Positions 16,032 through 35,264 of a DNA stretch of 64,000 nucleotides are shown here, piece by piece. The translations under genes were made by a program, and so were the position numbers. The stretch lies in the IMG/VR virus record IMGVR_UViG_3300006752_000009, one strand, 5' to 3'. The notes under the pieces were generated by a model. It had not been told where the DNA came from and searched no databases. It saw only the letters and a list, made by a program, of their open reading frames with translations. This DNA is from a virus (lineage: Duplodnaviria; Caudoviricetes). The first letter of the stretch is position 1. Each line of letters begins with the position of its first letter.

Positions 16032-16122
16032 AATCAGTCTCCTAGTGTGAATAAAGTGTCTGATTATGTGGGCGATATAAAGAAACTATTAAAGTAGATC
16101 TCTACCTGTGGATCATAAACGA

Positions 16123-16539
16123 TTACTTAGCAGGGATTGAGTTTGGCAGATTAGTGATTGTTTCACTAATCCAATCATGACCACTATCTAACAAGTCTTC
16201 ACCCCAAAAGCTAGGGTCAGAGATTTTCACTGTAATGCAAATGCAAGATTCACATTCCGATGTAGTTACAAAATCTTCAATCATCTGACTGTGGGGCCAC
16301 TGATTGATAGAGGTTTTAAAATCTTCTACAGATCTTTTTAGGATCGCCCTGTTCATGTGCATGAAACAAAGGTTAATTTTGTCTTCTTCATACTCACGAT
16401 CATCTACCATGATGATAGCACGAGCATTACTTAATTTTGCTGTCTTTGCGGCAGACTTCGTTCTTCTTGAGGTGCTGTTTTCAAGTCGAGCAATACGATC
16501 TTCAAGATTTCTGATGGTTTCGTTTGCTGATCTTCTCAT
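16123..16539 (-). CDS. MRRSA-leader cassette protein (payload unknown)
   Basis: Begins MRRSANETIRNLEDRIARLE; conserved 5' module at 16540-16602. Confidence 0.8.
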   Translation of the reverse strand: MRRSANETIRNLEDRIARLENSTSRRTKSAAKTAKLSNARAIIMVDDREYEEDKINLCFMHMNRAILKRSVEDFKTSINQWPHSQMIEDFVTTSECESCICITVKISDPSFWGEDLLDSGHDWISETITNLPNSIPAK

Positions 16540-16602
16540 AATGGTTCTCCATTTGGTTTAAGATTAAAGGGATCACTTATTGATAGGGGGATAAATAAAC
16601 TA

Positions 16603-17253
16603 TTAAACACGCTCGTACTTGATGACCTCATCAACCAAACCAAGCTCAAGACACTTCTTAGGGTTCATCCAAAGATCACGCTTTAGAAGATCTTTGAGTT
16701 GCTTCTTCTTCATGTTGGTGTTCTTGAGGTAAATGGACTCCAACATTTCCATGAGCGAGTCCATAGACTCTTTCTCATCAGTTAGGTTCTCGTATGTTCC
16801 CCATACACCTGTGCTGATTTGGTGGATGAGCATGAAACTATGCTCGGTGATGAAGCGTTTAGTTCCGACACAAGACATGATAGTCGCCGCTGACGCCGCC
16901 GACCCCTCGACATAAGTGAAAACAGGGATGTCCGAGTCTAAGATATGGCTCGCCCCTGCAAGACCACTAAAGGCACATCCTCCACCACTATTGATATGAA
17001 GGTGGATCGCAGGAGCTTGAGAGAGTCCAAGATCAGTGACCATATTAATGATCTGTTGACCGATGGACTTGATCGCAATCCCCATCTCCATGACAGACTT
17101 CGGAGAGATGCCTTGATAGAGGTAGATGTGATTGTCGCTTACGGTAATCTCACCATAGAAATCTGCTTGTGCGTTTTTGCGTTGAACATGAGCTTCTTCG
17201 TCATCATAAACTCTACGCATAGTGGGTGGGTGGTTAAAGTATTTCATAATCAT
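16603..17253 (-). CDS. clpP: ClpP-like serine protease
   Basis: LHINSGGG, GSAASAAT (catalytic Ser), MLIHQ (His), RDLWM, GLVDEV; start placed at 17253 by ATGA overlap with the upstream stop. Confidence 0.88.
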   Translation of the reverse strand: MIMKYFNHPPTMRRVYDDEEAHVQRKNAQADFYGEITVSDNHIYLYQGISPKSVMEMGIAIKSIGQQIINMVTDLGLSQAPAIHLHINSGGGCAFSGLAGASHILDSDIPVFTYVEGSAASAATIMSCVGTKRFITEHSFMLIHQISTGVWGTYENLTDEKESMDSLMEMLESIYLKNTNMKKKQLKDLLKRDLWMNPKKCLELGLVDEVIKYERV

Positions 17254-17672
17254 GCCCTTTCTCGGATTATGTGAAATCCTTCTAGCCAAGCTAGAACAAG
17301 AGGTCTAAGAGATTGAGTGGCGAGTGGGGAAAAACACTCTGGCATTTTCCGATGTCCTAAGATACAGTGGTCTTTCTTATACGACAGACAATGGTCTTTT
17401 TCATCACAGTCTTTGGGTACATCAAGGAGCTTTAGACAGCCTCTAGGCTCTCTAAGGTTTTGGTTCATCAGAGGGGTTGTGAACCCTCTCATTGCTTGGT
17501 CGAGTATGTCATGTGAGACTTCGGGGATTAAACGCTCTACAGGTGTTCCTACAAGGTCAGAGAACGCACCCCAATTTGTACTCTCATAAGGAAGGATCTT
17601 AGCGATCTTAGGGTTATTCCAATGACGATCAGTAAGGGTCATAAAGATTAACCCATCTCTACGGTACATCAT
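17250..17672 (-). CDS. hypothetical Cys-containing protein
   Basis: Reads ATG ATG TAC on the minus strand from 17672; overlaps both neighbours' start/stop codons. Confidence 0.65.
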   Translation of the reverse strand: MMYRRDGLIFMTLTDRHWNNPKIAKILPYESTNWGAFSDLVGTPVERLIPEVSHDILDQAMRGFTTPLMNQNLREPRGCLKLLDVPKDCDEKDHCLSYKKDHCILGHRKMPECFSPLATQSLRPLVLAWLEGFHIIRERA

Positions 17673-17992
17673 TAGTGGACGACCTCATCCTTCTTCATGA
17701 GTTCGATTTCTCTAAGGCATATATTAGCAAGATCTTCGGATATGATCTTTTCATCGGTGAGGTAATCTACAACTAAAGGGTGTAATGTGCCGATAAGAAG
17801 GATCGGTTGGCGATCATCATTTTTATCGGGGGTTACTAACACTTGCATTTCGGGGAAGATACGCTCTATCCCCATCATTCGCCCAACATAGAACCACATT
17901 TTAATCAGTTCTTCTTTTGAGTCTGACTGAGCTACTATATTGTTGAGTATTGCCTGCAATACTTCAACAGGATCTATTGAGTCGTTGTCCAT
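17672..17992 (-). CDS. hypothetical protein
   Basis: AAGGAG RBS inside a 12-bp hairpin (17993-18026). Confidence 0.65.
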   Translation of the reverse strand: MDNDSIDPVEVLQAILNNIVAQSDSKEELIKMWFYVGRMMGIERIFPEMQVLVTPDKNDDRQPILLIGTLHPLVVDYLTDEKIISEDLANICLREIELMKKDEVVH

Positions 17993-18040
17993 GATACATC
18001 TCTCCTTTTATATAGAGAGATGTATCTAAAGACTACAAAC

Positions 18041-18325
18041 TTAATGTTGTCTATGCAGACATCTCGCCCTAACCTCATTGAGCATAGATTCGATCTTATT
18101 AAACTTATCTAAAAATTCTTTATAGGGTCGAAGCACATCTTCATCACTGAGGTTATCGAGCATTTCAGCGGCATCATCAAAGATTCTTTTAAGATCACGA
18201 TTTTCACTTAGAAAGTCATGGTTTTCATACTTTTTTCTAAGGTCTACGAGCCTACCTAGATTGTCATCTAGGTTTTCTCTCACATCGTGAAACATCTTGG
18301 TTTTAGAGACTGCGTTTCTTACCAA
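18041..18325 (-). CDS. hypothetical protein
   Basis: 94-aa ORF overlapping the upstream stop. Confidence 0.5.
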   Translation of the reverse strand: MVRNAVSKTKMFHDVRENLDDNLGRLVDLRKKYENHDFLSENRDLKRIFDDAAEMLDNLSDEDVLRPYKEFLDKFNKIESMLNEVRARCLHRQH

Positions 18326-20049
18326 CTTTTTTTTTGATAAGAAGCTCTTCTACGACCACCACTCATAGCACCCTCAAGTTTACGGATGAGTTTCTGTAGA
18401 CCTGCAATGGCTTTACGAGTACGAACTTCAACAGGCTGACGACCTGCACGACCAGTTCCTTGAATACGATCAAGTGCGAGGCGAATGTCGTTCGCAGACT
18501 CTTGGGAAAGTTGATCTCGATTAGTGCCGAGTGAACGCTGTGTTGCCATGAGCTGTTGTACAGCTCGCTCATCAACGATACCGTTATCTTGGAATGAAGC
18601 AATCGCCGCACGAACAACAGAAACGGTATCTGTGATCATAGCTTGTGAGTAAGCAATGTCTTGGTTCTGCCACATTCCAGGATTTGAAGTAAGACCGATT
18701 GGATACGAGCCATAGAGAGGACCGCTCTTACGGTGTTCACCTCTCTGTGAATATGCAGAGACATAACCCTTCTTGAGCTTAGACTTGAGCTGTTTAACAA
18801 AGAAAGCCTGTGCTTCATAAGAGTCCATAAATGATTTATCGGCTCTACGACCCGAAGAACCAAGACGACCATAAAGGATTTCTACATCTGATCCGCTAAC
18901 GACCATCTCGTAGAATTTGCTTTTGTTCTCGGACTCACCGATGAGATAAAGCATACAAGAGGTAGCCTCTGCCATTGAGCGACCCTCATGATAAGCTGTG
19001 CTTGAGCGAACACCTGCGAGTTGTGGCTCACCTGCGGCTTCACGATTCATGCTTGCAGTGCGATTGAGGTTTGCCTCAAGACGAGCGATCCTCATCTCAA
19101 GGTTACGGATTACTTCACTAGCTGATCTTCTCATTTGAGATCCTTTCTTTAGAAGCCTTCTGACTTCATCTTTAGAGTAAGAGTTGTCGAGCTTACGCTC
19201 ATTACGATAGATGAGGTGACGCAAACGCTTACGCTCCTCATCATTGAGTGAATCAATGCCTCTACGCTGACCTTTATTGATAAGCATAAAGTCATCACGC
19301 TCAAGATAGGCATTGGATTTAAGGTCTGCAAGTAGCTTAGATGCTGGAGATGACTGACTAGCAATGATTTCTTCAACCACATTCATCTGTCTTTCAGAGA
19401 GCTGAATACGATCTTCAGCTTTAGACTTGAGTTGTGCCAAGAAACGATTACGAGGGTCGAGTTCAAGTGCCTTTTCAATACGGACAAGCTGATTACTTGT
19501 CTGATTACCAACCATTTGAGTTTGCATCAGTTTTTCGTCAAGCACTTCAATCTGTCTCTCGGAAAGCTCTCTACCACCCATAAACTGATCGTAGAGACTT
19601 CTGAAAAAACGATTAGTAGGTTGCATCGCAATCGCTTGGTTGAGCTTCGTTAAGATGTCTTGATCGGGATTCTCAATACGCTCTTCAGTTTCGATTAGGA
19701 TTTCCTCAACCCTGTAGTGAAGGGGATCTCCTTGTTGAAGCTCATTTAAGATGTCTTTCCACCAATCACTATTCGGATTAAGAGCAAGAACTGCTTGAAC
19801 ACGCTCAATGCTCTCTACATCTCTGAACTTACCTGGAAAGTCGATCTTGAGTTGGATGAGTCCATCACTGATGGACATATCTCCAAGACTCCTTAACAGA
19901 GACACAAGAACATCTGGTCCTTTTTTGTTGAGTTTAACTTCAAAATCGTCAAAGTTAATCATGGCATTGTCTCTACGAGACTCCATCTCAAGCATCTCTA
20001 GTGCTTCTTCTACTGTGGTATTGTAGAAATATATTTGATTGGCTTTCAT
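18319..20049 (-). CDS. fusion protein: three ~45-aa helical repeats + internal MRRSAS leader + WGR domain + C-terminal helical domain
   Basis: Internal MRRSASEVIRNLEMRIARLE at 19134; WGR-like segment NKSKFYEMVVSGSDVEILYGRLG...KLKKGY; start placed at 20049 after GAAGGAG. Confidence 0.75.
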   Translation of the reverse strand: MKANQIYFYNTTVEEALEMLEMESRRDNAMINFDDFEVKLNKKGPDVLVSLLRSLGDMSISDGLIQLKIDFPGKFRDVESIERVQAVLALNPNSDWWKDILNELQQGDPLHYRVEEILIETEERIENPDQDILTKLNQAIAMQPTNRFFRSLYDQFMGGRELSERQIEVLDEKLMQTQMVGNQTSNQLVRIEKALELDPRNRFLAQLKSKAEDRIQLSERQMNVVEEIIASQSSPASKLLADLKSNAYLERDDFMLINKGQRRGIDSLNDEERKRLRHLIYRNERKLDNSYSKDEVRRLLKKGSQMRRSASEVIRNLEMRIARLEANLNRTASMNREAAGEPQLAGVRSSTAYHEGRSMAEATSCMLYLIGESENKSKFYEMVVSGSDVEILYGRLGSSGRRADKSFMDSYEAQAFFVKQLKSKLKKGYVSAYSQRGEHRKSGPLYGSYPIGLTSNPGMWQNQDIAYSQAMITDTVSVVRAAIASFQDNGIVDERAVQQLMATQRSLGTNRDQLSQESANDIRLALDRIQGTGRAGRQPVEVRTRKAIAGLQKLIRKLEGAMSGGRRRASYQKKSW

Positions 20050-20114
20050 CACATCTCCTTCGGTTTGTTTCACAGCAAAGGAGGAGGTATAAATAAACTA
20101 TAAAAGGTAAAGAT

Positions 20115-20907: not shown

Positions 20908-20948
20908 TTGTTTTATATCCTCAACTAACAACAAAGGGGGGTATAAAT

Positions 20949-21215
20949 ATGTCATTACCTAGAGAACGAAAAAGAGCTGACTATCGAGTCATTGCTCGCA
21001 TCTTGCAACTGAGTCATGGACAAGCAGATCCAAAAGACTCATTGCTTGAAAAGATTTCTAATGTATTTAATCGTAATGGTGGCTCTTGGGTATTATTCTT
21101 TGAAGGACACCCAAAACACAGCAAGCTACTTAAAGTAGTGATAAAAGCTGTCGTAAAACATAAGAAGGATCAACATGAGCGAAGAACTAGAAGCCAAATC
21201 AGTTGGGAAGATTAA
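20949..21215 (+). CDS. hypothetical protein
   Basis: 88-aa ORF with GGGGG RBS; class A-like box at 20905-20916. Confidence 0.6.
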   Translation: MSLPRERKRADYRVIARILQLSHGQADPKDSLLEKISNVFNRNGGSWVLFFEGHPKHSKLLKVVIKAVVKHKKDQHERRTRSQISWED

Positions 21216-22851
21216 ACCCCGATCAAAAGCGATCACTCGTAAGCTCAATCCTGCCGAGATGAAATCGAGGGTCAAAGTGGCGATGACCACAGGAGGCTCT
21301 ATGATGGGGTCGGGTGGGAACTTCTACTCACCAGAGTTATCTACTGACTTTCTTGAACTACCTCAAAGTCAAGACGAACAACGCAACTACTTTAGGTTCT
21401 TTTATCGCACTGACCCCTTCGTAGGACAGGCGATTGATCTACATACAGAGCTTCCCCTCTCTAAGATCAGATTAGGGCTACCTAAAGCTCGCAACCGAGA
21501 CATGGCTTATGAAGCACTTAGGTTCTGTGAAAAATGGGCGAAGCGAGTCGGACTACTTCACCGACTCATAGAAATCTTACATGAGTTCAACCTGCTCGGT
21601 GAGGTTTTTGTTTTCTGTGAGGACAATAATCCAGATGTGCCTCAAGAGGTGACACATAGTGGTCGGAATGTTCTTAAAGAAGATGGCGAAGCGTTTACTG
21701 AGTGGACTGAGTATGAGGACTCCCATGAACGAGCTTACAAGTGGCTCAAGAGGAACTATAAAGGGTGGACAGGTGTTCGTATCCTCCCTCCCGAACAAGT
21801 TCACATGGAGAGTTTTCCTTTCACTAGTGAGAAGATCATTCAACTTATTCCCGATAGTAAAACTCGTGATGTAGTTGAACGAGCTTCGGTTAATGATCCC
21901 TCTGCTCTTCGTATTGTAGACTCAATGCCAGGAGATGTTGTAGAAGCTATTCGAGATGGTCGCAACATTGACCTCAATACTGATCCCGATCAAGGATCAT
22001 TCGTTTATTATATGGCTCGTAAGAAATCACAATATGAACCTCGTGGACACTCTATGCTTGAGCGTTGTCTTCGTATCCTCGTTTATCGAGATAAATTAAG
22101 ACAAGCCCAAACTTCTATCGCTTCAAGACACATGACTCCTATCCGACTCGTATATGCAGAGGATATGGATGCGTCTGATGTTGAAGAGTTGAGAGATCAA
22201 GTGGATCTTGCACTACAAGATCCAGACTATTCTATCATCGCTAACTTCCAAGTCTCTTGGGAAGAGATGGGTGCTGACTCTCGTTTGCTTGAACTATCGG
22301 GCGAATATGATATGACAGACCGACAGATGTATGCAGGTCTAGGTGTTACAGAATCTCTGTTATCTGGTGAGTCTAGTTATAGTGGCGATAGGATCAACTT
22401 AGAAGTCATCAACACACGCTATATGCTTATGCGTGAGGTTCTTCAAGAGATGGTTGAAGAGAACATCTTGAAGCCAATGTGTAGACGAATGGGTTTCGTT
22501 GAAATAGATGAAGATGGTGATGAGGTTGTAGTACACCCAACCCTTAGCTTCACTCGACTTGGATTGCGTGATAATCAAGATACCTTTGACGCTCTCTTTA
22601 ACCTGTATCAGAAGGGTTCATTGGACATTGATGTGATCCTAGAACTCCTCAATGTAGATCCTATGACAACTAAGGCTAAACTTGAGCGTGATATGTGGAC
22701 ACTCAATGACTCTCAGTTTAACGAAGTTCTGAGAGGGGTCTATGGTGAAGCAGGTCGTATGTTAGCCGAGAACACAGAAGCGATTGAGATCATCGCTAAG
22801 AATCTTGGATTAAAGTACAACCCACCAGAAGATGACGGTGGTCGTTTCTAA
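21175..22851 (+). CDS. probable portal protein
   Basis: 558 aa; segments FYRTDP.VGQAIDLHTELPLS, LLHRL.EI.HE..LLGE.F and YE.RG.S.L.RC resemble large-phage portals (from memory). Confidence 0.65.
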   Translation: MSEELEAKSVGKIKPRSKAITRKLNPAEMKSRVKVAMTTGGSMMGSGGNFYSPELSTDFLELPQSQDEQRNYFRFFYRTDPFVGQAIDLHTELPLSKIRLGLPKARNRDMAYEALRFCEKWAKRVGLLHRLIEILHEFNLLGEVFVFCEDNNPDVPQEVTHSGRNVLKEDGEAFTEWTEYEDSHERAYKWLKRNYKGWTGVRILPPEQVHMESFPFTSEKIIQLIPDSKTRDVVERASVNDPSALRIVDSMPGDVVEAIRDGRNIDLNTDPDQGSFVYYMARKKSQYEPRGHSMLERCLRILVYRDKLRQAQTSIASRHMTPIRLVYAEDMDASDVEELRDQVDLALQDPDYSIIANFQVSWEEMGADSRLLELSGEYDMTDRQMYAGLGVTESLLSGESSYSGDRINLEVINTRYMLMREVLQEMVEENILKPMCRRMGFVEIDEDGDEVVVHPTLSFTRLGLRDNQDTFDALFNLYQKGSLDIDVILELLNVDPMTTKAKLERDMWTLNDSQFNEVLRGVYGEAGRMLAENTEAIEIIAKNLGLKYNPPEDDGGRF

Positions 22852-22911
22852 TAGTTTATTTATACCCTCTCATAAGTGATCTCTTTAACCTTAAACCAAT
22901 GGAGAAAAACC
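22852..22911 (+). promoter_or_regulatory. representative cassette 5' module: class A box TAGTTTATTTAT, ATAAGTGATC, AACCAATGGAG RBS
   Basis: Near-identical copies at 9445-9500(-), 16540-16602(-), 34336-34397(+), 34745-34805(+); partial copy at 33177-33231(+). Confidence 0.75.
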
Positions 22912-23205
22912 ATGAGAAGATCTGCTAGTGAAACTATTAGAAATCTTGAAGATCGTATCGCTCGCCTTGAAGGTAAGACAGCGAAAATCAACCTCAAATC
23001 CCTTGCCAAGCACATAAGTAAAAAAAGAAGCGATGGTACTGGTACTGTTGGCTTTGTGGAATATGACGCACGAAGCCAAACAGTAATTTTCCTCAATGGG
23101 GACTATGAAGATATAGTAGTACCTGTAGACAAGTTGTTAGCTCAACTTATCCGAGAGGAGATGGGTAATGACCTGTATGACTTAGAGGGCAACACTATCA
23201 GTTAA
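22912..23205 (+). CDS. MRRSAS-leader cassette protein (payload unknown)
   Basis: MRRSASETIRNLEDRIARLE; 5' module 22852-22911 starts immediately after the portal stop. Confidence 0.8.
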   Translation: MRRSASETIRNLEDRIARLEGKTAKINLKSLAKHISKKRSDGTGTVGFVEYDARSQTVIFLNGDYEDIVVPVDKLLAQLIREEMGNDLYDLEGNTIS

Positions 23206-24911: not shown

Positions 24912-24984
24912 CATTATACAATAAATAAGGGGTTACAGTTGTAGTTTCTTTATCGCTCTCAATATAAAGAAAAAGGAGCTTACT

Positions 24985-26847
24985 ATGCAGAATATAACTA
25001 GTAGAATAAGACCACCAAGAGCAGTAGTCGAACAGATCGAAGAATACCTATTAAGCCAAGTCGGGGTATACGAAACCCTTAATCTAAATGTTAATGTTCC
25101 CCCACCTCCAAGAACTCGTGGTTATGTAGAGGACTTAGACTTGAGAGTGGAGATAATTCCTCCTCATGCGTCTGAAAAATATAATAGAGTTGAAGCTAAA
25201 TATGACTCTACGAACTCTGTTCTTTATGTGAACCTCCCCTACTTTGAAAAAAAATATGAGGGAAGGGAACTAGCAGAAGCTCTTTACAGAGTAGTCGCTC
25301 ACGAGCTAGTTCATGTATATCAAATCCTTTATACTAGATCACGAGATGGCGATCCGAGATCTGACTCTCCAACAGCAGGGCTTCCTGGACTTAGAGAGAG
25401 AACCCCACAATATAGACAGGAAACAGGTGAGATACTTGACCATCGTTTAGACGACAATGAGTTTTACCCACGCTTAGAGGACACCATCAATGCAATCAAC
25501 TTTGTAGCGAGAACAAGGCAAGATGAGATAGCGAGTATCATTTCTTATGTTGTAGGTGAGTCAAAACGACCAGCGTACCGTTCTAAGCACTTAAGAGAGC
25601 CTATGGCATGGCTTGAAGACTTAGGGAAGTACGCACCTAAAAAGTTCCTCAAAGCTGTGAGAAAGATCAAGAACGAGTTCCCCGAAACAGCAAAAATGCG
25701 TACTGCCGATTTCTTTAGGCAGGTTAGTCCTCCCGATGAGTTAAGTACCTTTAGTAATGGAACACCCACAGGTAAAGGAACAGACCTTAAAGACAAAGGT
25801 GAAGGCTCTCAAATGCCAAATGGAGATGGAGCTAGGAATATAGGTCGCCCTAGCCCCGACTCCCCTAACCTTAAATCAAGAAATCTTGATCGCTCTGAGT
25901 CTTATGGTCGTAAGCCTGCTGAGGGATTTGATGGAGGTTATGTGCATGATAGTGGTAGCGGTAGTGCTAGGGTTATCCCTTATGATAGTGGTTTTGCGAA
26001 CAACTCATCTCCTTTGAGAAAAGCGTCAAAGCGTGTTGCTCACAGATACTTAGATTCATTAAAAGCACCTTCGATGAAGACATCGGCAAGACCGATACGC
26101 ATTGATAAAGCTAAGATCAAAGAGATGACTAAGGATGCGATCAAAACCCTTGAGGACATAGTTAAGAAAACTAAGGAGGAAACCTTATCCAAAGCTATCA
26201 AACGCAAGACGAGAGACGGAACTATATTTCTAGGTAGCTACCTAGATTCTGGTTCCTCTATTGAGATTCAGATCATGGTCAAAGAAACGCACGAAAATGG
26301 GCAGTACATCTACAATCCACAAAGGGGTTTGCATGAGATCGAAATCTATCTTGCAGATAGAACCGTCAAAGAACTGACTCACCCTTATCTGTATAAAATG
26401 TCAATAAGACCAGCGATGGTTAAGCACATATACTCTATTCTCATACATGAGATTACTCATGCCGTTGAGCGAATCCGATACTTGCAGACTGACGAGGACT
26501 TGCTAGGCTTTGGTTTAAATCAAGGATCTAGGTTTGATAAGGCAAAGATCAAGACACGCAAAGACAAAGATAAGGTATTAAAGGCGTATTACAATGACCC
26601 TAGCGAGGTTAAGGCTTACCTCCAACAGATTGCTGATGAAGTAGAGGAATACCTTAACCAAAAGCATGGAGGGCTGTCTAAAGAATCCCTACAGTCTGGT
26701 TGGAGAGATTCTTTTGGTTATTACGGTTCTAAGACTTGGGATCAAGTTTCTAAATACCTCACCCCAAAGAACCAAAAGTATATCAAGAAAGCAGTGCTCT
26801 CACATCTCATAGAGACCATAGACTCAAAGGAATCAACCAATGGCTAA
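24985..26847 (+). CDS. polyprotein-like probable virion protein with two HExxH zincin-type domains
   Basis: HELVH at 25300 and HEITH at 26446; linkers KMRTAD, RKASKRVAHRYL, MKTSA; class A box at 24941. Confidence 0.7.
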   Translation: MQNITSRIRPPRAVVEQIEEYLLSQVGVYETLNLNVNVPPPPRTRGYVEDLDLRVEIIPPHASEKYNRVEAKYDSTNSVLYVNLPYFEKKYEGRELAEALYRVVAHELVHVYQILYTRSRDGDPRSDSPTAGLPGLRERTPQYRQETGEILDHRLDDNEFYPRLEDTINAINFVARTRQDEIASIISYVVGESKRPAYRSKHLREPMAWLEDLGKYAPKKFLKAVRKIKNEFPETAKMRTADFFRQVSPPDELSTFSNGTPTGKGTDLKDKGEGSQMPNGDGARNIGRPSPDSPNLKSRNLDRSESYGRKPAEGFDGGYVHDSGSGSARVIPYDSGFANNSSPLRKASKRVAHRYLDSLKAPSMKTSARPIRIDKAKIKEMTKDAIKTLEDIVKKTKEETLSKAIKRKTRDGTIFLGSYLDSGSSIEIQIMVKETHENGQYIYNPQRGLHEIEIYLADRTVKELTHPYLYKMSIRPAMVKHIYSILIHEITHAVERIRYLQTDEDLLGFGLNQGSRFDKAKIKTRKDKDKVLKAYYNDPSEVKAYLQQIADEVEEYLNQKHGGLSKESLQSGWRDSFGYYGSKTWDQVSKYLTPKNQKYIKKAVLSHLIETIDSKESTNG

Positions 26848-28801
26848 AAATGTACCTACCGATGAGAAGTTATGGACTGAGATACAATCTCTAGCTAAAG
26901 GTGAGTCTAGTAAGCCTGTTTCTAGGGGTAAAGAGTCTGTCAATCCTGTGAATGATGGGAAAGGGTTTGAAACTTTCCCATCGGCTTATGCTAACGGTTG
27001 GGCTTTGGCTCAGTACAAGCGACTAGGTGGTAAGTGGAAAAAGGAATCTAAAAAAGCAGGTCTGATAAGACCTCCAAAACATATTGTAGATAAAGTTTCA
27101 GAGATACTGACGGCAGGGTTTGCTTCTTATTGGGTTGGGAAGCAAAAGGAAATGGATAATAAACCGTATTTATCTATATCTCTTGAAAAGATCTCTAACT
27201 TTGAAAACCTTATCGAAGATTTAGATGAAGCGTATATGTCCGTAAGGATGAAACGAGCTACTTTTGATGAATTGGAAAGAGCTTTAAGAGCTTTGAGAGT
27301 ATCGACTCAAGAGCTTATAGATATGTTTAAAGGGCGAATACCTCCTACCCTTGAAAAGATGAGTCATATTTTAGAAAACATGAGTCCGATTAGTGTCTTT
27401 GAAGAACCTAAAAAATATAAAAAAGAATTTATGTTTTTAGGTAGGACATTCGGTTTAATTTCAGAGTTGAGATCTCTGAGACAAGATCCTGTTTCTTACA
27501 TCTCAGAGAAATCAAGGGCATTATATGAGGGTGAAGCTAATAAAGTTAAAAGGTTTGATAAATTCTTAGATCGACCTTCTCAATCGACATGGATTTTTCA
27601 AACAGAAGATTTAGGCACACTTCGGTTACAAGTAAGAGAATCTAAGGGTGCTAAGGGTTTAGCGTATTATCGTTATGATGAAATTGATGATCTACATACA
27701 ATAACCGTTAGGGTGTTTCCTAACTCCAATGACTTGAGTGGGGAAGATCTAGGTAAGATTAAAGATTATGTACGGCATGAGTTAGTTCATGCTATGCAAA
27801 AAAAAATGTCATTGGACTTCAATGTTGATCAAGCAGGTATTCCTTTCCAAAAGCGAGATATGACTTACTTGCAAGGACATAAATACAAAGAAAAAGACCT
27901 TAAAGCTCAATATGAAAGAGAGGGTCTTGACTCAGATTTGGTAAGTATCCATGCACTTGATGACATCGAGTTTTATACGAGACTTTTAGATGAAGTGGTG
28001 GAATTTCAGAGACTTAATGTGAGTGGTTCAGACCTTAATCAAGAGGTGCATGAGTGGGTGTCCAAAAGAAAATTTTTTGTAAGTTTAAAAAGGTTTAAGA
28101 AAAAGAATTGGAACAAGGCTGTTGGTATTTTCTTTGAAGCAGTCAGTTCTAATCGAAAGTATGCTCGTAAGTGGGACAAAGATCATTGTGAGTCTAAGAG
28201 TTGCGATGAGATGGGCTTCTCTGAAAAGGCTTCATGTCGCCCCTATAAGAACTGCTACGAGAAGTCAGCGTCCTCCAAAGTTAAACCCATGTACTTAGGT
28301 TCAGAAAGTGGAGCGATGGCTTACGATTTCTACTTTATGCGTGTGGAAAAGGATTACTATTACCACTACACATACAGAGATCGTGCCGAAGAAATAATAG
28401 AGGATGGTTATTTAAGACCCAATTTCTACAACGATCAACCAGGAGGACAAGGTGTTTTTGCCATCTCTGGATCTTATGGACAAGAGGTCACAGACCTTCA
28501 AGTCAGTGGTTCTAGGAAAAAACACATGGATAGGATAGTTGCCCTCAAGTTTAAGACTAAAACTGAGCCTAAGTATGGATACCCCGAAGAAATCATTTGG
28601 GATAAACCTGTGAAACTTATTCGACCAGAGATTGTTAGCTTTTCGGAAGCTGAGGCAGACATTAAGAGGAATGAGGACTTAGGAGAATACTTCAAGGTAT
28701 TTTACGACTTTAAGAAGGCTGTCGAGATTAAAAAAGAATATGGAACAGTGATCTCTAGGGTTGCTCACAGATACTTAAGGAATCTAAAAAATGAAACATA
28801 A
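26840..28801 (+). CDS. polyprotein-like probable virion protein: PSAYANGW module + LIRPPKH-zincin module + Cys motif + ART-like domain
   Basis: HELVH at 27776; YHYT...I.EDGYL.P...GVFAIS at ~28355-28720; linkers KKAG, EKSAS, SRVAHRYL. Confidence 0.7.
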   Translation: MAKNVPTDEKLWTEIQSLAKGESSKPVSRGKESVNPVNDGKGFETFPSAYANGWALAQYKRLGGKWKKESKKAGLIRPPKHIVDKVSEILTAGFASYWVGKQKEMDNKPYLSISLEKISNFENLIEDLDEAYMSVRMKRATFDELERALRALRVSTQELIDMFKGRIPPTLEKMSHILENMSPISVFEEPKKYKKEFMFLGRTFGLISELRSLRQDPVSYISEKSRALYEGEANKVKRFDKFLDRPSQSTWIFQTEDLGTLRLQVRESKGAKGLAYYRYDEIDDLHTITVRVFPNSNDLSGEDLGKIKDYVRHELVHAMQKKMSLDFNVDQAGIPFQKRDMTYLQGHKYKEKDLKAQYEREGLDSDLVSIHALDDIEFYTRLLDEVVEFQRLNVSGSDLNQEVHEWVSKRKFFVSLKRFKKKNWNKAVGIFFEAVSSNRKYARKWDKDHCESKSCDEMGFSEKASCRPYKNCYEKSASSKVKPMYLGSESGAMAYDFYFMRVEKDYYYHYTYRDRAEEIIEDGYLRPNFYNDQPGGQGVFAISGSYGQEVTDLQVSGSRKKHMDRIVALKFKTKTEPKYGYPEEIIWDKPVKLIRPEIVSFSEAEADIKRNEDLGEYFKVFYDFKKAVEIKKEYGTVISRVAHRYLRNLKNET

Positions 28802-31118
28802 GTCTTTAATCGAAAAGGTGGCCCAACGCTATTTAGAGTCTGTAAAGCGTGATGATCCTAAAAAAAAGAACACTGGTAAGGGTGGGTTAGGTACTTGGTT
28901 TGCAGGGCATGGTGGTGGAGATCCCGATGATCGTGCTACATGGGGCGATTGGATTGCTATAACACCTGTAAAACACACTATCAAAAAAGAAGATGGAGAG
29001 GACAAGACCTATGAACCAGGAGACATTGTTGGCCCATGTGCCATATCTAGTGAAAAAGAGTGGTCAGATGTTACAAGTGGGGGAAAAAAACCCCTCAAGT
29101 GTATGCCACGAGAAAAAGCATGGAAAATGCCCAAGAAAGACCGAGCCGAGATTGCCAAAAAGAAAAGGCGGGAAGAAGCGAAGCATCGTGGGAAGAAGCC
29201 TGTTAATACTCCGACTTTCTCTGATGAAGCTAAAGAGATCACAGAGAAAAAGAAGAAGACTTCTGGCTTAATCAGACCTCCAAAACACATTGTAGATCAA
29301 GTAGCAGAAATAGGTAAAGGATTACTCGCCCAATACTGGATTAAAAGGGAAAAAGAGGATAGCTCCAAAGGTGGACTAGATCCAGAGTCTGTTGAGGGTC
29401 TTGAGTGGATACTTGAGGATCTTGATTATCTGCCACTTGGGGTCAAAAGAGGTGAACATGATGAGGAAGAAGTGATCTTCCAAGTCAGAAATGTACAGAG
29501 AGCTTTTTCCGAGATAGATGAACAGATGGAATCTGCAAACCTCAAATACTCAGACTTCCACAAAATCAAGACAAAGATAGATCAGCTCGATGCACAGAGC
29601 ATCTTTAATGACCCAAGAGGGAATAAGGCTCTCATCGGGTCTATCTCGGATAGGGCATCTGATTTACTTCGTGAGTTTAAAAAATGGTCAACAGGGAGTA
29701 AACAATACATCCCCACCTTAATGCGTAATGACTACCTTGAAGCTGTCGAACGACTGTCAAAGTACAAGGTCAAGGACAGTGGTAGATACTATGTTGAAGA
29801 TGATGAGCTAGGCTTAGTGGCAGTACATCTTCAAGAGTCCTCACATGGTGCGGCTCAATACTATTGGGATGGTATTCACCACATCATATTTAATGTTCTC
29901 AAGAATATGACTGAACTCCCTCTCAAGTATTTAACAGATCGAGAAACGATAGCAGGACATGAGCTAGTTCATGCAATGCAACAACATTACGCTAATAAAG
30001 CGAACATAGAGGAAGCAGGATTACCAAGTCAGAAAAGAGATGAACAGTTTCGTTTTGACATGAAGGAGAAACAGAAAGAGCTGAGAGTCCAATATGCTAG
30101 AGAGGGGATGGATTTTGAGCTGATCTCTATCCATGCGTTAGATGACATAGAGTTTTACTCTCGCCTACTCGATGAGGTTACTGAGTTCAAAAGACGCAAT
30201 AAGGGTCTTAATGATGAAATACATAAATGGGTAAAAAAACGACCTTTTTTTGTAAGTCTTAAGAGATTTAAGCGTAGGAATTGGAAAAAAGCAGTAGGCA
30301 TCTTTGTTGATGCTGTGCAACTTAAAGCTAAGTCAGCTAGTCGGGTAGCTCATCTCTATTTGCAAGCGGCTGCTCAACCTGCACAAGACCTAGCAGGTGT
30401 CAAAACATGGGTCGATAAAACCCGACAAGACCAAATCAATAACGATACCTCTACCCCAAATAAATCGAGAGAAGATTATGAAGATGGTAAACCACAAAGA
30501 GATCGAGTTCTACCTTTACCTAGTGGACACCCCGAAGGTCGAGATGAGCAAAGAGTTGGACCAGGAGTCATTAACTCACCTCCCGACTCTAGTGGTCAAG
30601 GTGGAGCGAACCGTCCAAAGAAAGACCCAAGTGCATTAAACGATCACCCCAATGGGAAAGCCCTCCATGAGCGTCCTAGATCAAGTGGTATTCCTGGAGA
30701 TCAGTATGGAAACCCTTATATAGATCAATCCACATCTACAGGACTCAAGCGTAGAGTCATGGGTAGCTCAGAGGAGTTTGAGTTTTGGGATGTAGATGGA
30801 GATGATCTCGTCAAAGTCGCCTTGTTTCGATATAACCATCGACCACCGAGAGGGAACAAGAGACAGCGTTCTCAAAAAGGTCAAGCGAAACGCAAATCTC
30901 AAAAGTACAAGCGTAAGTATCGGGTTAAATACCGTAGAAATCTTTTAAAGCAGAAGAGACGCTACAAGCGTAAAAAACACAACCCAACTTACAAGAAGTA
31001 CAAGAAGAACTACGCTAAGAACCCAGAGAGGTACAAGCGTAGACCAGGTGGTGTGTCCACAGTTAAACAGAAAAACAAACGAACAGAAAATCGTAGGAAG
31101 AAGGCAGATCATGAGTGA
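28791..31118 (+). CDS. polyprotein-like probable virion protein: N-terminal module + LIRPPKH-zincin module + disordered region + K/R-rich tail
   Basis: HELVH at 29958; IHALDDIEFY.RLLDEV shared with the upstream gene; linkers EKVAQRYL, KKTSG, KSASRVAHLYL. Confidence 0.7.
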   Translation: MKHKSLIEKVAQRYLESVKRDDPKKKNTGKGGLGTWFAGHGGGDPDDRATWGDWIAITPVKHTIKKEDGEDKTYEPGDIVGPCAISSEKEWSDVTSGGKKPLKCMPREKAWKMPKKDRAEIAKKKRREEAKHRGKKPVNTPTFSDEAKEITEKKKKTSGLIRPPKHIVDQVAEIGKGLLAQYWIKREKEDSSKGGLDPESVEGLEWILEDLDYLPLGVKRGEHDEEEVIFQVRNVQRAFSEIDEQMESANLKYSDFHKIKTKIDQLDAQSIFNDPRGNKALIGSISDRASDLLREFKKWSTGSKQYIPTLMRNDYLEAVERLSKYKVKDSGRYYVEDDELGLVAVHLQESSHGAAQYYWDGIHHIIFNVLKNMTELPLKYLTDRETIAGHELVHAMQQHYANKANIEEAGLPSQKRDEQFRFDMKEKQKELRVQYAREGMDFELISIHALDDIEFYSRLLDEVTEFKRRNKGLNDEIHKWVKKRPFFVSLKRFKRRNWKKAVGIFVDAVQLKAKSASRVAHLYLQAAAQPAQDLAGVKTWVDKTRQDQINNDTSTPNKSREDYEDGKPQRDRVLPLPSGHPEGRDEQRVGPGVINSPPDSSGQGGANRPKKDPSALNDHPNGKALHERPRSSGIPGDQYGNPYIDQSTSTGLKRRVMGSSEEFEFWDVDGDDLVKVALFRYNHRPPRGNKRQRSQKGQAKRKSQKYKRKYRVKYRRNLLKQKRRYKRKKHNPTYKKYKKNYAKNPERYKRRPGGVSTVKQKNKRTENRRKKADHE

Positions 31119-32160
31119 TTTATTAGCTGAAATACTTGCAGACGATATTTTTGCCGAAGAGCTTCAAGCTGGACGAACTAAGCGTAGGACTAATCCTAAA
31201 ATCAAACGCAGAAGGCGAATGAGGACTCAGACAAAGAACCTACGCAAGCGTAATACTAATCAATCTCAAAGACGAAAGAATAGAAAGAAGCACAGGAAGA
31301 AAATGAGAACCGACCCTAACTACAGGAAAAATCGCCAAGACTATCGCAAGAAATACTACAAGAGGCACAAAAAAAGCTCTGTAGGCTATTCTTTACCTTT
31401 CAACCTAGAGTTCGCTTATGAAGGTAAGCCTGCTTACTTGATGTCTTTATCCGAGATGTTTGATGCCATCAACATCTATGTAGATGGTGAGACAGCCATC
31501 GTAGTAGATCTTAACGATTTCTTAGATAGGGTCGAATGGTATGAGAGAGAGGACATGGAAATGTTCTTCGATCTCATTGATGGATCTTACGCTGTCCTAG
31601 AAGAAGATCCCCAAGATGCTTGGGCTGAGTTCACTCTTGAGGAGAGTGATGCACCAGCCAAGAGAAAGATAGACAAGAAATCAAGTGTTTGTAATAGGAC
31701 TGACAATCTAGCTATCCTACAAATGCTATTAGCTGTTCTACGAGGTGCTCATTTCGCACACTGGACTAGTCATTGGCAGGTTAAAGGGTCAAACTTTTAT
31801 GGCGACCACGAGTTGATGGAGAGGGTTTACACATCTCTCATTGAAGAAATCGACACACTAGCCGAGAAGATTGTTGGTACATACGGAGTAGAAGCTGTTA
31901 ATGCTGTAGAACAGGCACAGCTTATGGCTAATCACCTCTTACCTTTAGCCGAGGCTCATAGTATGAATGACCCGATACGCAGAGCCTTCTTGATTGAGGA
32001 AGGTCTACAGGTCATCTTTAAGAATACTTATGATATGCTTAAGGAGCAGGGAGGTCTTACATTAGGTATGGACGACTTTATTATGTCTATGGCTAACGCA
32101 CACGAGACTAACCTTTACCTTTTAAGGCAGAGATGCGATACCCGACCAAAGATTAGATGA
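31111..32160 (+). CDS. basic N-terminus + Dps/ferritin-like C-terminal domain
   Basis: AHWTSHWQVKGSNFYGDHELMERVY....EEIDTLAEKI matches the Dps H..HW.V.G..F...H...E......D..AE motif; start placed at 31111. Confidence 0.75.
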   Translation: MSDLLAEILADDIFAEELQAGRTKRRTNPKIKRRRRMRTQTKNLRKRNTNQSQRRKNRKKHRKKMRTDPNYRKNRQDYRKKYYKRHKKSSVGYSLPFNLEFAYEGKPAYLMSLSEMFDAINIYVDGETAIVVDLNDFLDRVEWYEREDMEMFFDLIDGSYAVLEEDPQDAWAEFTLEESDAPAKRKIDKKSSVCNRTDNLAILQMLLAVLRGAHFAHWTSHWQVKGSNFYGDHELMERVYTSLIEEIDTLAEKIVGTYGVEAVNAVEQAQLMANHLLPLAEAHSMNDPIRRAFLIEEGLQVIFKNTYDMLKEQGGLTLGMDDFIMSMANAHETNLYLLRQRCDTRPKIR

Positions 32161-32338
32161 TTTTTCTCTATTTATTTCAGACACTTAGGTTTCCTCCGAA
32201 AGTTTTTTGAGAAAAGTTCGGCAACATCTTGTGTATATCGTATAAGAGTATGTGAGCAACAGAGCCAATCACTTCGGATGACTCGCTAACGCTCTTAACT
32301 TTAACTGCCGACAGGCAATATATACAGGAGAATGCCCT

Positions 32339-33055
32339 ATGGGTTTTTCAGACTTTACACTCGGTTCTACTTCACCAATCCTTTCAGGTGGTAAGGTTCG
32401 TTGGAAGCCACAGAAGGGAAAGTTTCGTGTGACTTTCGTGGCTCTTCCAGGTCTTGAAGATAACGCTGTTAAGTTCTCGGACGATAATGGTAATCCTACC
32501 AATCCTTCTTTCAAGGGTGGTCGTAGGCTCTACCACAAGGATGTCGGATACTTCTTGGATCATGGACCAGAGTATCAGAAGATCGCAGGTAATCCTTCAA
32601 AGACTTCAATCGCTACTACGCTCATCTTTTGGCCTACAGATGCCAATGGTACGCTTGATAAGGCTCGCTTCGCAAATGGTGAGTTCGAGATCAAGACTTG
32701 GGTGTTCTCACTCGACAAGTATCGTCAGCTTGAGTCCATCAACTCTGAGTTCCCTTTGAGTCAGCACGACATCTCAATCACTGTGACCGACCCACAGTTC
32801 CACAAGATGACATTCGCCCCTTGTAAAGAGTCTTTGTTCAAGACTTTGAGCGACAAGGGTTCTGATATGTTCAAGACTTGTATGGAAGCGGCAAAGCCTA
32901 TCCATCTGAACCTCCAAAATGACATCGCTCAAGACCTTACTCTCGATCAAATTCGTGAGAAGATGAGTGGTTCGGTTGGTTCGCCTACAGGCAACAGTGG
33001 TGGAGGTTTCAACTCGTCCTTTGACGCTGATGAGATCCTTGACGGTATGCTTTAA
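32339..33055 (+). CDS. probable single-stranded DNA-binding protein (gp32-like)
   Basis: 238 aa, beta-rich and aromatic, Gly/Ser linker and acidic-hydrophobic tail FDADEILDGML; AGGAG RBS. Confidence 0.55.
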   Translation: MGFSDFTLGSTSPILSGGKVRWKPQKGKFRVTFVALPGLEDNAVKFSDDNGNPTNPSFKGGRRLYHKDVGYFLDHGPEYQKIAGNPSKTSIATTLIFWPTDANGTLDKARFANGEFEIKTWVFSLDKYRQLESINSEFPLSQHDISITVTDPQFHKMTFAPCKESLFKTLSDKGSDMFKTCMEAAKPIHLNLQNDIAQDLTLDQIREKMSGSVGSPTGNSGGGFNSSFDADEILDGML

Positions 33056-33116
33056 GAAAAGCCTTGACCTTTGACTTAAGTCATGGTTGAATACGCTTAA
33101 TAGCCTGTAAAGGCTC

Positions 33117-33175
33117 AATGCCTCTTAGACCCCTCACCAAGCCACAGAGGGTGTTTAAGGGGCATTAATTTTTTT
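33117..33175 (+). terminator. Rho-independent terminator
   Basis: Long stem AATGCCTCTTAGAC-CCCTC / GAGGG-T-GTTTAAGGGGCATT followed by T7. Confidence 0.75.
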
Positions 33176-33231
33176 GTAGATCTTTTATAGGTTCTTCATT
33201 GGTAGCCATATTAACCAAATGGAGAATTATT

Positions 33232-34338
33232 ATGAGAAGATCAGCAAGTTTTGGTGACATCCTCGTTGATGTCATCGAAAAATATGAAGATGAGCTAATG
33301 GCTCTTGATTCAGAGTATATTGATGGTGGTGATGACTACGCTAACCGAAAACAAGATGCTCTTTTTGGAGGGGACCTAGATACAGCTCTTTTGTTCACTC
33401 GTGATCGCAGAGTCAAAGAAGTGTTGCTAACTATTCAATCAGATCTTGATCGTATCGAGAAAGGGGAGATTTCTATTAGAAGATCAGCATCCGATACCAT
33501 CAGAAATCTTGAGGCTCGTGTAGCCCGACTCGAATATAATCGAGGACAAGCCTATATCAACCTCGATCTTGTGGGAGAAAACTTTCGCACAGGAGTTAAT
33601 CTTGCTCACTATATTGTTGACGAAGGCTTTGATCATTTGATGGAGGGTAAGCTATTCATTAAGGATGGATTGAATCTTGTGGATTATCATATTGGTAGCA
33701 ACCTTGAAAGGTTCGAGACTCTGTTGAAACAAGAGATGGTAATGACTCTTGAAGATGTTTCAATCGGGAATCATAGAAGCACGAGTAATGCTGATCCAGA
33801 AGAACTTGAAGATCTGAACCTTCCCGATGTCCAAGACCTCAATCGTTCAAGAGTGAGTGTGGAGCGAGTAATTTCTCCAACATCGGGTACTCCTGGATAC
33901 CTTGTTAAAGTTAATGGTGGGTCGGGTATTAAAGTCGCTCGCTTTGAGAGGTCGGCAGGGACTATGGACTTTTTTAAGTCTTATAATCGCAGGGCAGGGG
34001 AGATCGTCAAAGAGATCAATGGTATCTTACCTATTGGTATCTTTGCGTCTAAGCCAGAGAAGGTAAGTAAGAAGTCTAGGCAAGCTAAGGCGATTTTCAG
34101 AGGTTATATTGGAACAGCCAACTCTCTTTCAGTTGATTTTGACTCAGACCGACATTATAGGATTGTGTTTCTTTCTGATGACGATTATCGGTCGCCTTTA
34201 GAATACGGACTCGATGACTTATATACTCAGAGTTCTTTTACTTTTTACCTTGATGGTAAAGCTGTGGCGACTGCAAAAAATGGGGAGATGGATCACACCT
34301 TTTTAAGTAAGGTTAAAAGAGCGTATAGATCTCAATAG
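33232..34338 (+). CDS. MRRSAS-leader cassette protein, tandem fusion of at least two cassettes
   Basis: Starts MRRSASF; internal IRRSASDTIRNLEARVARLE at 33475; later ERSAG and NRRAG motifs. Confidence 0.8.
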   Translation: MRRSASFGDILVDVIEKYEDELMALDSEYIDGGDDYANRKQDALFGGDLDTALLFTRDRRVKEVLLTIQSDLDRIEKGEISIRRSASDTIRNLEARVARLEYNRGQAYINLDLVGENFRTGVNLAHYIVDEGFDHLMEGKLFIKDGLNLVDYHIGSNLERFETLLKQEMVMTLEDVSIGNHRSTSNADPEELEDLNLPDVQDLNRSRVSVERVISPTSGTPGYLVKVNGGSGIKVARFERSAGTMDFFKSYNRRAGEIVKEINGILPIGIFASKPEKVSKKSRQAKAIFRGYIGTANSLSVDFDSDRHYRIVFLSDDDYRSPLEYGLDDLYTQSSFTFYLDGKAVATAKNGEMDHTFLSKVKRAYRSQ

Positions 34339-34397
34339 TCTTTTTATCTCTTATCAATAAGTGATCTCATTAACTACAAACCAAATGGAGAATACCC

Positions 34398-34715
34398 ATG
34401 AGAAGATCAGCATCAGAAACAATTCGTAATCTTGAATCAAGAATCGCTAAACTTGAGAAATCATCTAGCAGAACAGATCGCTTAGAGGAAAAGCAAGATC
34501 ACGCAAAGAAACTAGAACAAATCTTGAAGCCTGTTTTCGGTTCAAGTCTGCGAAGCGTGTACTTTGACTACAACAATAGTGATATGTTCATCGCAGAAGT
34601 AAGTGCAAGTTTTTGGGAGGAAACAGGTCTTAACAAAAATGGATTAAAGACACTTGCAAAGTACACAGAAGGATTTACCCTTGACGGAAACAGAGTTTAC
34701 TTAAACATTGATTGA
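34398..34715 (+). CDS. MRRSAS-leader cassette protein
   Basis: MRRSASETIRNLESRIAKLE; 5' module 34336-34397. Confidence 0.8.
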   Translation: MRRSASETIRNLESRIAKLEKSSSRTDRLEEKQDHAKKLEQILKPVFGSSLRSVYFDYNNSDMFIAEVSASFWEETGLNKNGLKTLAKYTEGFTLDGNRVYLNID

Positions 34716-34805
34716 TCGAAGCCTTTAGGGTTGGTAGTAATTTGTAGTTTATTTATACCCTATCAATAAGTGATCTCTTTAACCTTAAACCAATGGAGAA
34801 CTCCT

Positions 34806-35264
34806 ATGAGAAGATCAGCATCAGAAATTATCAGTGAACTTGAGACTCGGATTGCCCGTCTTGAAAGAAAAGCCTCACCCTACCGTCCAGACGGATATGA
34901 CGCATATGAAACTGGAGAGTCAGAGCGACCTCTTGACATCTTTGAGTCTCGGAGTCGAGATGATGAGAGATGGAGAGATTCTGTCTCAACAGGAGAGAGG
35001 GCTGACAAGCAGATTAAGTCTATCCTTAATAGTTCTCGTATTAAGTACACTAATAAATATGGTAGATTTATTTTTGCTGACAAAAGGACTTTGGTTAAAG
35101 CTCTTGAGGCTTTAGGTGAGAGTCGTTCAGACGCTCGGATTCTTGGTGAGAGAGGTACTGATCTTCAAGGAGACTTAATAAATCTGTTTGGTAAGTCTTA
35201 TGAGGTTGCTGTTCCCGATTTGGAAGATGAGCAGTATGAGTACTACTTAGTAGCATCTTACTAA
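34806..35264 (+). CDS. MRRSAS-leader cassette protein
   Basis: MRRSASEIISELETRIARLE; 5' module 34745-34805. Confidence 0.8.
   Translation: MRRSASEIISELETRIARLERKASPYRPDGYDAYETGESERPLDIFESRSRDDERWRDSVSTGERADKQIKSILNSSRIKYTNKYGRFIFADKRTLVKALEALGESRSDARILGERGTDLQGDLINLFGKSYEVAVPDLEDEQYEYYLVASY

Follow-up and report, generated by a model that had tools for sequence, protein, structure and literature searches.

A leader shared by unrelated late genes of a marine phage G-like lineage: a candidate cleavable head-targeting propeptide and a joint for recombination

Why should phage genes that encode unrelated proteins begin with the same short peptide and be preceded by the same non-coding DNA? The question is raised by a 64,000-nucleotide stretch of the IMG/VR virus record IMGVR_UViG_3300006752_000009 (the window), which belongs to a 347,814-bp sequence from marine metagenomes and whose source is, as judged by its relatives, an uncultured marine giant phage of the phage G-like lineage. 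A first-pass annotation had described seven copies of one leader in the window, six full and one partial, and all of them are present where they had been placed, the full ones being recovered by a six-frame search. We conclude from comparative sequence analysis that this leader, or tag, functions as a peptide, is joined to hundreds of payloads that have nothing in common, and is provided with a dedicated 5' untranslated region (UTR) and a late-type promoter. We further propose, giving the proposal an even chance of being right, that the tag serves as a propeptide which targets proteins to the head and can be cleaved off, in analogy to the capsid-targeting sequence (CTS) and internal-protein (IP) loci of phage T4 but with no relation to them in sequence. 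Much of the comparison relies on G001, a complete relative of 375,691 bp (IMG/VR, CheckV 100%) with about 87-90% nucleotide identity to the window over the genes in common.

The six full copies match RRSAS-E-x-I-R-N-L-E-x-R-I-A-R-L-E with at most four substitutions in 19 positions. Four of them are stand-alone (16536(-), 22915(+), 34401(+), and 34809(+)) and two are internal, one at residue 315 of a 584-amino-acid (aa) open reading frame (ORF; 19131(-)) and one where Ile precedes the leader instead of Met (33478(+)); the partial copy is the start of ORF 33232, which reads MRRSAS and is divergent thereafter. The family consensus is M-R-R-S-A-S-E-[IV]-I-R-N-L-E-[M/x]-R-[IV]-A-R-L-E-[KR]-[QKS]-[SA]-[SAG], and in the leader profile conservation collapses past residue 24, after the [KR]-Q-[SA]-[SAG] motif. 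In an AlphaFold2 (AF2) model of one member, P0012 (pLDDT 71), leader residues 5-22 are helical, and the leader helix has a conserved hydrophobic face made up of I9, L12, I16, and L19. The second half of the tag recurs as (M)R[IV]ARLE[KR]Q[SA][SA] at domain junctions of longer members, such that the half-motif R[IV]ARLE plus [KR]Q[SA][SA] has 15 internal junction occurrences in 198 proteins compared with 0.04 in shuffles. The junction in the P0012 model is where a long helix ends and a disordered linker begins, with a separately folding domain on either side, and each of these domains, the beta-rich domain A and the alpha/beta domain B, occurs singly behind an N-terminal leader elsewhere. The G001 proteome contains the motif [KR][KQ]AS about five times as often as expected (25 vs 5.2), and the motif is found at plausible boundaries (marked here by a slash) in the scaffold-position protein (EKKAS/YRPR), in a 1064-aa head protein (KKQAS/RVASKYMK), and in homologues of the polyprotein-like genes described below.

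How large is the family, and do its members share anything beyond the leader? A profile scan for copy number and payload diversity had been suggested by the first-pass annotation. We ran it with a profile of 32 positions from 40 leaders against 1.84 billion cluster representatives (metagenomes, clusters at 50% identity), and obtained 1096 matching representatives at E<=1e-3, of which 152 reached E<=1e-10; in almost every case the match was at residue 1, and the median protein length was 132 aa. G001 has 31 profile matches (27 of its ~443 ORFs by a strict motif). A DNA pattern of the ribosome-binding site (RBS) and start found 53 IMG/VR loci, which give 48 distinct leader proteins with 35 BLAST-unrelated payload clusters, and 187 pooled payloads form 137 BLAST clusters. 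The family is probably wider than the profile count, because looser leader variants (MYLKRALLNLERRVADLEADLQ, MKKASEIIRGLERRLARLEKQAS, MNDLRYRIASLMRRVAELEQAQSA, and ...MERIAGLEMKVAAMEYQAG) start promoter-driven ORFs of G001 at 67291, 197421, 211578, and 367064. The tag itself has no Pfam or PHROG model, no description of it was found in the literature searched, and a tblastn search of 50,697 GenBank phage records with the leader (E<=10) gave zero matches. As had been claimed, the payloads in the window are without mutual BLASTP similarity, and their only match in Pfam and PHROGs is a WGR domain in the 584-aa protein; extended to 40 large members of the family and to the full G001 set of 27, the same searches gave WGR and marginal matches only. 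For two window payloads the ESM Atlas returned low-confidence models and no usable match, and the LXG-like feature matches of the window payloads there reached 0.88, under the lead threshold. The payload of a 368-aa protein has one homologue among 5.8 billion proteins, so that no folding alignment could be made for it, and the P0012 model has no significant match in PDB or BFVD, where weak nucleotidyltransferase-like rows had E values of about 0.04-0.1.

It could be argued that this is a plain paralogue family, descended from one ancestral small protein whose C-terminal parts diverged beyond recognition while the N-terminus was kept for structure, given that the payloads are ORFans, that remote homology is possible for some, and that certain payload clusters are related. 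However, payload lengths and predicted folds differ (WGR; beta-rich domain A vs alpha/beta domain B), homology over the whole protein is not detected among the members (the 137 clusters from 187 payloads), the same payload stands behind N-terminal and internal leaders, the same N-domain stands before different payloads, and the homology breakpoints coincide with the leader. We regard common descent of the whole proteins as very improbable.

Is it the peptide or the DNA that is conserved? Identity at leader codon positions 1, 2, and 3 is 0.77, 0.83, and 0.54, respectively, and the invariant residues use several synonymous codon families (TCA, AGT, and AGC for Ser6; AGG, CGT, AGA, CGG, and CGC for Arg15; Arg18 and Leu likewise varied), which argues for selection on the leader at the amino-acid level. 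Internal leader copies, which are without the UTR, still keep the peptide, and some leaders sit behind other UTRs. The opposite view, that conservation is at the nucleotide level only, in a translation-initiation or regulatory region encoding a peptide without function, could appeal to the first four codons, which are nearly invariant (partly from search bias), and to the UTR, which is itself selected (identity 0.76 vs 0.47 in the adjoining spacer). It does not account for the synonymous turnover at invariant residues, the internal copies, or the leaders behind other UTRs, and no RNA structure is predicted. We have rejected it as contradicted by the leader codon data, and its remaining probability is close to negligible.

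What, then, stands upstream of the leader? Comparison of the upstream sequences bears out a 5' module common to the four stand-alone leader genes, which reads TAGTTTATTTAT, a spacer of 7-9 nucleotides (nt), ATAAGTGATC(T/C)C..TTAAC..AAACCAA(A)TGGAGAA, 5-6 nt, and ATG; in the window ATAAGTGATCYCTTAA has 6 occurrences at <=3 mismatches vs 1.68 expected, and 0 of 100 shuffles reached 6. The module has two layers, a generic late-type promoter box and a leader-specific 5'UTR. The promoter module that had been described as shared by the cassettes is indeed present at them, but its box TAGTTTATTTAT is also found upstream of ~12 non-cassette genes of the window, among them the portal operon and genes for a polyprotein, a giant tail-fibre-like protein, and a lysozyme-like protein; the ATAAGTGATCTCTTTAACCTTAAACCAAATGGAGAA stretch occurs solely upstream of leader genes. 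The box has 51 occurrences in G001 vs 2-4 by chance, and leader genes account for at least 15 of the 45 promoter-box-driven ORFs of that genome. We call the promoter late because a perfect TAATAGTTTATTTAT box precedes the G001 genes for the decoration protein and the major capsid protein (MCP). The UTR, with a mean pairwise identity of 0.76, is more conserved than the spacer upstream of it (0.47) and the leader third codon positions (0.54), which suggests that it is selected in its own right. A consensus RNA fold of the promoter-UTR-leader region of 33 cassettes has 0 pairs, and the idea of a hairpin locking the RBS in this module was dropped on that ground. The UTR core TTTAACCTTAA (22872-22911 and the other cassette UTRs) presumably resembles the 'epsilon' enhancer of T7 gene 10 (TTAACTTTA); if the likeness held, the cassette UTR would be a strong translation enhancer.

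Comparison between relatives addresses how such cassettes are gained, lost, and rearranged. G001 is without the cassettes that in the window follow clpP (16094-16590) and the portal gene (22855-23202); the flanks are contiguous, and clpP is directly followed by the next conserved gene. The segment with the decayed module after nrdA (9010-9495) is missing from L008 and from G001, with contiguous flanks in the latter. A site that is empty in the window, between the genes at positions 4936/4955, holds two cassettes in L008, and GATTTGTAGTTTnTTTAT begins each L008 cassette unit and the next gene, bounding both extra cassettes, while window segment 889-2766 is replaced in L009 (two cassettes) and L036 (one cassette). 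Whether orthologous loci carry different payloads, a point raised by the first-pass annotation, was checked behind the SSB-like gene, where the homology between the window and G001 ends at 33245 within MRRSA and G001 then has a different, 141-aa leader protein. Within reading frames, residues 9-336 of the 584-aa protein match P0130 at 59%, ending right after the internal leader, and P0130 goes on with a payload that P0073 has directly behind its N-terminal leader; L050 matches residues 1-101 of the 368-aa protein and then differs. Cassette 5 of the window lies between two 26-nt copies (34718-34743 and 35270-35295, 85% identity) of the 3'-terminal sequence of the convergent gene 35261-36223(-), like an insertion or unequal-crossover scar, and this bracketing fits unequal crossing-over between genomes with different cassettes at one locus.

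The breakpoints of the cassette indels and payload swaps lie within the promoter box or the leader. The recombinable 5' module that had been postulated is therefore strongly supported, by relatives of ~88% identity that are without the clpP, portal, and nrdA cassettes and by breakpoints in promoter and leader, and these alignments make a firm case that payloads are inserted, deleted, fused, and exchanged between co-infecting relatives at two patches of homology, the conserved 5' module of ~120 nt and the promoter box. By contrast, the adjacency of cassettes to clpP and portal, to which the first-pass annotation had drawn attention, carries no functional weight: both cassettes are missing from G001 (~88% identity), so that the adjacency is incidental, and a functional link to clpP or portal on this basis was ruled out.

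To ask what the tag might do, the lineage and its head module have to be considered. The portal protein of the window (21175-22851(+); phrog_16240 8.3e-32, related to the phage G portal) has 71% identity to that of LR745208, a 485-kb uncultured phage, 37% to that of Tunturiibacter phage Tunturi_5, and 26.5% to phage G gp14. The G001 head module (L058 (G001:38000-57000), 10888-18781(-)) encodes, in coding-strand order, the 1064-aa protein, a gp19-like protease of 482 aa (37.5% identity to the phage G head-maturation protease gp19; phrog_18299 4.9e-14), an acidic scaffold-position protein of 513 aa, a decoration-like protein, and an HK97-type MCP of 292 aa that is 39% identical to phage G gp27; homologues of the lineage's MCP number 2097. 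As separate observations, the 1064-aa protein has the motif RVA(S/H)(K/R)Y(M/L), as does the gp19-like protease towards its C-terminus (MSASKYMSLL), and the MCP contains RVARVYM. The scaffold-position protein has one EF-hand motif, two ARLADNAVQVGT repeats, and segments that are loosely leader-like (RRASQREIEDLALRMMDL; C-terminal ...REASSASDELSKLWE), below a profile match at E<=0.01.

We read the cassette as a self-contained late gene. Its promoter is of the generic late type, its 5'UTR is dedicated and has a strong Shine-Dalgarno sequence, and its 24-residue N-terminal leader, the putative propeptide, is joined by a short linker to an unrelated, fast-evolving payload. The leader comprises M-R-R-S-A-S, the amphipathic helix E-[IV]-I-R-N-L-E-x-R-[IV]-A-R-L-E, and then [KR]-Q-[SA]-[SAG]. 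In the mechanism that we propose, the first half of the tag would bind the protein to some part of the prohead during assembly, and a head protease would recognise and cut the second half, R[IV]ARLE[KR]Q[SA][SA]; the candidates for this protease are the gp19-like prohead protease of the lineage and the ClpP-like enzyme. Payloads would in this way be loaded into the head, parted from their tag, and delivered along with the DNA, and multi-domain fusions would be cut at each junction. Head targeting with cleavage fits the anatomy of the tag, since the tag has an exact N-terminal position, a sharp small-residue boundary, a half-motif at junctions, and a promoter in common with the capsid operon.

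Several points weigh against this mechanism. Some 30 different packaged proteins, accessory and variably present, would be a large load, and the cassettes are scattered among replication genes rather than grouped in the head module. The motif at the end of the tag has no clean match to the T4 (L/I-x-E) or phiKZ (S/A/G-x-E) cleavage consensus, and fusion of cassettes could have left the internal half-motifs behind without selection for them as sites. A leader profile search of LR745208, phage G, and Tunturi_5 found none, leaving no cultured relative with the tag, and among RNA sequencing runs we found none with this locus. We also list here a complex prediction for the G001 MCP (alignment A5) and the leader (A2), the score of which, 0.00, neither supports nor opposes binding.

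Some of these points would suit another reading, in which the tag is a docking helix for a cytoplasmic hub (a chaperone, a host target, or a phage regulator) and the payloads are late intracellular effectors that are never packaged. A conserved hydrophobic face is what a docking helix would present, and the cassettes are accessory, hypervariable, and scattered among non-structural genes; the MCP prediction, which detected no binding, has been counted on this side too, though it supports neither. Yet a cytoplasmic hub leaves unexplained the small-residue boundary, the recurrence at junctions of the second half only, and the fact that [KR][KQ]AS is enriched among proteins of the head module, and late timing would be odd for host takeover, and we consider such a role unlikely. 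A virion role other than head loading was also weighed, with the tag attaching proteins to the capsid exterior (decoration, fibres), the neck, or the tail. Fibres and decoration proteins typically have a short conserved N-terminal adaptor and a variable distal part, an arrangement like that of the leader proteins, and the cassettes have their late promoter in common with structural genes. The payloads are, however, small globular ORFans of ~70-250 aa that are not fibre-like, ~30 proteins would compete for one site, and the junction or cleavage-like motif would go unexplained; we hold attachment elsewhere on the virion to be quite improbable.

The presence of more than one protease bears on a further alternative. 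Because the lineage also has the gp19-like prohead protease, the ClpP-type protein of the window is a second protease, and phage G likewise encodes gp19, ClpP, and ClpX, of which ClpP and ClpX were both detected in virion preparations (PMC12484599). That detection, and the ClpP-type gene adjoining one cassette, would be in keeping with a tag that times the removal of proteins, acting at their N-terminus as a degron or adaptor signal to which the phage ClpP-type protease and a ClpX respond. However, the clpP adjacency is not conserved, no ClpX was found within the window, and making ~30 late proteins merely for degradation would be unparsimonious. The tag is also, we assume, unlike known N-terminal ClpX motifs. 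We accord this degradation signal only a slim probability.

Returning to head targeting with cleavage, its widest form is that this marine phage G-like lineage loads a personalised arsenal of ~30 interchangeable effectors per virion by means of a bipartite, protease-removed tag of 24 residues, drawn from a pool of >1000 families, and that the DNA of the tag is the recombination joint by which effectors are traded and fused. We advance this tentatively, as somewhat more probably wrong than right. If it is true, no larger set of phage proteins delivered by the virion would be known, and the tag would offer a ready means of packaging. A head-loading role for the tag would by itself turn >1000 uncharacterised families into candidate injected effectors, a testable class of 'ORFan' genes whose products could serve anti-defence, host takeover, or DNA protection in abundant, not-yet-cultured marine megaphages; the tag would then also be a short and transferable signal for packaging into an HK97-type capsid, with one half for targeting and a separable one for processing. 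Whatever the function, the family shows cleanly, and in nature, how phages can shuffle coding segments in frame, much like exons, with the promoter-UTR-leader module as the homology patch.

The cassettes of the window are arranged as follows. Cassette 1 consists of a 138-aa gene (16123-16539(-); leader 16468-16539) with an ORFan payload, a leader-specific 5'UTR (ATAAGTGATCCCTTTAATCTTAAACCAAATGGAGAACCATT; 16540-16580(-)), and a promoter box TAGTTTATTTAT (16591-16602(-)) that abuts the stop codon of the gene for the ClpP-type serine protease (16603-17289(-); Pfam CLP_protease 8.5e-26, phrog_94 2.6e-43), and 17-nt repeats of the box lie on either side of it (16077-16093 and 16591-16607). Past this cassette is a conserved late gene for a 176-aa protein (15501-16031(-)) with homologues in G001 and LR745208, in which RVASMKVAS between the two halves is a candidate junction motif. 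The 584-aa protein (18319-20073(-)) has a conserved N-terminal domain of ~310 aa, the internal full leader (19063-19134), and then WGR. In cassette 2 the promoter box (22852-22863) and 5'UTR (22872-22911) run from the portal stop codon (22852-22911(+)) to a 97-aa gene (22912-23205(+); leader 22912-22983). The clpP, portal, and nrdA stop codons all abut a promoter box, in agreement with the earlier statement that cassettes start at the preceding stop codon. The module after nrdA (9440-9500(-)) is decayed, its promoter and UTR being intact, its Shine-Dalgarno sequence GGAT, and its leader lost; a 113-aa ORF (9002-9343) lies downstream.

The remaining three cassettes follow a gene (32339-33055) for which the earlier label 'ssb' found no confirmation in Pfam or PHROGs. 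The module of cassette 3 (33177-33231(+); TAGATCTTTTAT ... TTAACCAAATGGAGAA) had been called partial; it is present, but it is full-length and diverged. The 368-aa protein of this cassette (33232-34338(+)) comprises the N-terminal MRRSAS (33232-33249), a domain of ~75 aa, the internal leader (33475-33546), and an ORFan payload. Cassette 4 (34336-34715(+)) has its promoter at 34336-34347, its UTR at 34357-34397, and a 105-aa gene at 34398-34715 with the leader at 34398-34469, and cassette 5 (34745-35264(+)) has its promoter at 34745-34756, its UTR at 34766-34805, and a 152-aa gene at 34806-35264 with the leader at 34806-34877.

Other genes of the window and its relatives also deserve comment. 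Three adjacent polyprotein-like genes (24985-31118; 620, 653, and 775 aa) have HExxH motifs and repeated segments (GLIRPPKHIVD...), with junctions of K-x-[AS]-[SG] followed by RVAHRYL-type motifs, and the 775-aa protein has an extremely basic C-terminal tail. The next gene (31048-32160) encodes a basic N-terminal region and a Dps/ferritin-like DNA-binding domain (phrog_3636, 1e-12). Segments of the polyprotein-like genes and the Dps-like gene region differ between the window and G001, and the products of 24985-32160 look like processed, DNA-associated head proteins. Two giant ORFs (36133-43227, 2364 aa; 43286-50245, 2319 aa) have tail-fibre or tail-protein PHROG matches, and a promoter box at 43228 drives the second. 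The nrdA gene of close relatives has an insertion of ~950 nt that is missing from the window (10431-10434 vs L059 15215-16169 and L008 7707-8661) and that could be an intron or intein with an endonuclease; homing-endonuclease-like genes (2723-3859(-), phrog_314, 1.9e-15; 56464-57804(-), phrog_3339, 3.5e-36) lie amid nrdB, nrdA, and the thymidylate synthase gene (61386-62129).

How does the proposed propeptide compare with systems already known? Encapsulin cargo-loading peptides are likewise short and conserved, serve diverse cargo, and belong to an HK97-fold shell, and loading by the tag would be the counterpart, but they are usually C-terminal and uncleaved and bind the shell protein directly, and here the MCP-leader prediction of 0.00 supports neither side. 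In T4-like phages, the promoter-early stem-loop (PeSL) elements are short regulatory motifs that flank accessory genes and serve as homology patches (PMC4122927), and here too indels are bounded by repeats of short motifs (GATTTGTAGTTTnTTTAT in L008 and the 17-nt repeats at cassette 1). The patch differs in being a late promoter with a UTR and a coding leader, not an early promoter and with no stem-loop predicted, and exchange also occurs inside the reading frame, creating fusions. The giant phages SPN3US and phiKZ load many proteins into the head and remove N-terminal propeptides with a prohead protease (SPN3US gp245, phiKZ gp175), and those of SPN3US head proteins include propeptides of 20 and 24 residues (PMC10052503). 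A prohead protease is encoded by the G001 lineage as well; the SPN3US and phiKZ propeptides, however, are individually distinct and cut at S/A/G-x-E, whereas here one tag that ends in [KR]-Q-[SA]-[SAG] is found on hundreds of families.

The nearest analogue is the T4 CTS, an N-terminal propeptide of 10 residues in which the first part serves for targeting and the last part undergoes processing, and which is carried by IP genes that vary between relatives and have conserved 5' sequences as recombination points (PMC9026906, citing Repoila et al. 1994). As in IPI, IPII, and IPIII, we find a short N-terminal leader on otherwise unrelated small and probably late proteins, and, as in the T-even IP loci, the genes are hypervariable between close relatives with a conserved 5' sequence at the breakpoints; the division into a targeting and a processing part is one that we infer for the tag. 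The differences are equally plain. The consensus MRRSASEIIRNLEMRIARLEKQ[SA][SA] is unlike MKTYQEFIAE, and its NLE and RLE are without L/I at P3; the tag has 24 residues as opposed to 10 and recurs at internal domain junctions; there are ~30 dispersed genes per genome vs ~3 in one locus; and the host lineage of the tag is phage G-like, with an HK97-type MCP of 292 aa, a separate scaffold, and other proteases, known here from sequence alone. The principle thus has a clear T4 precedent, and what is remarkable here is the scale and the half-motif at the junctions.

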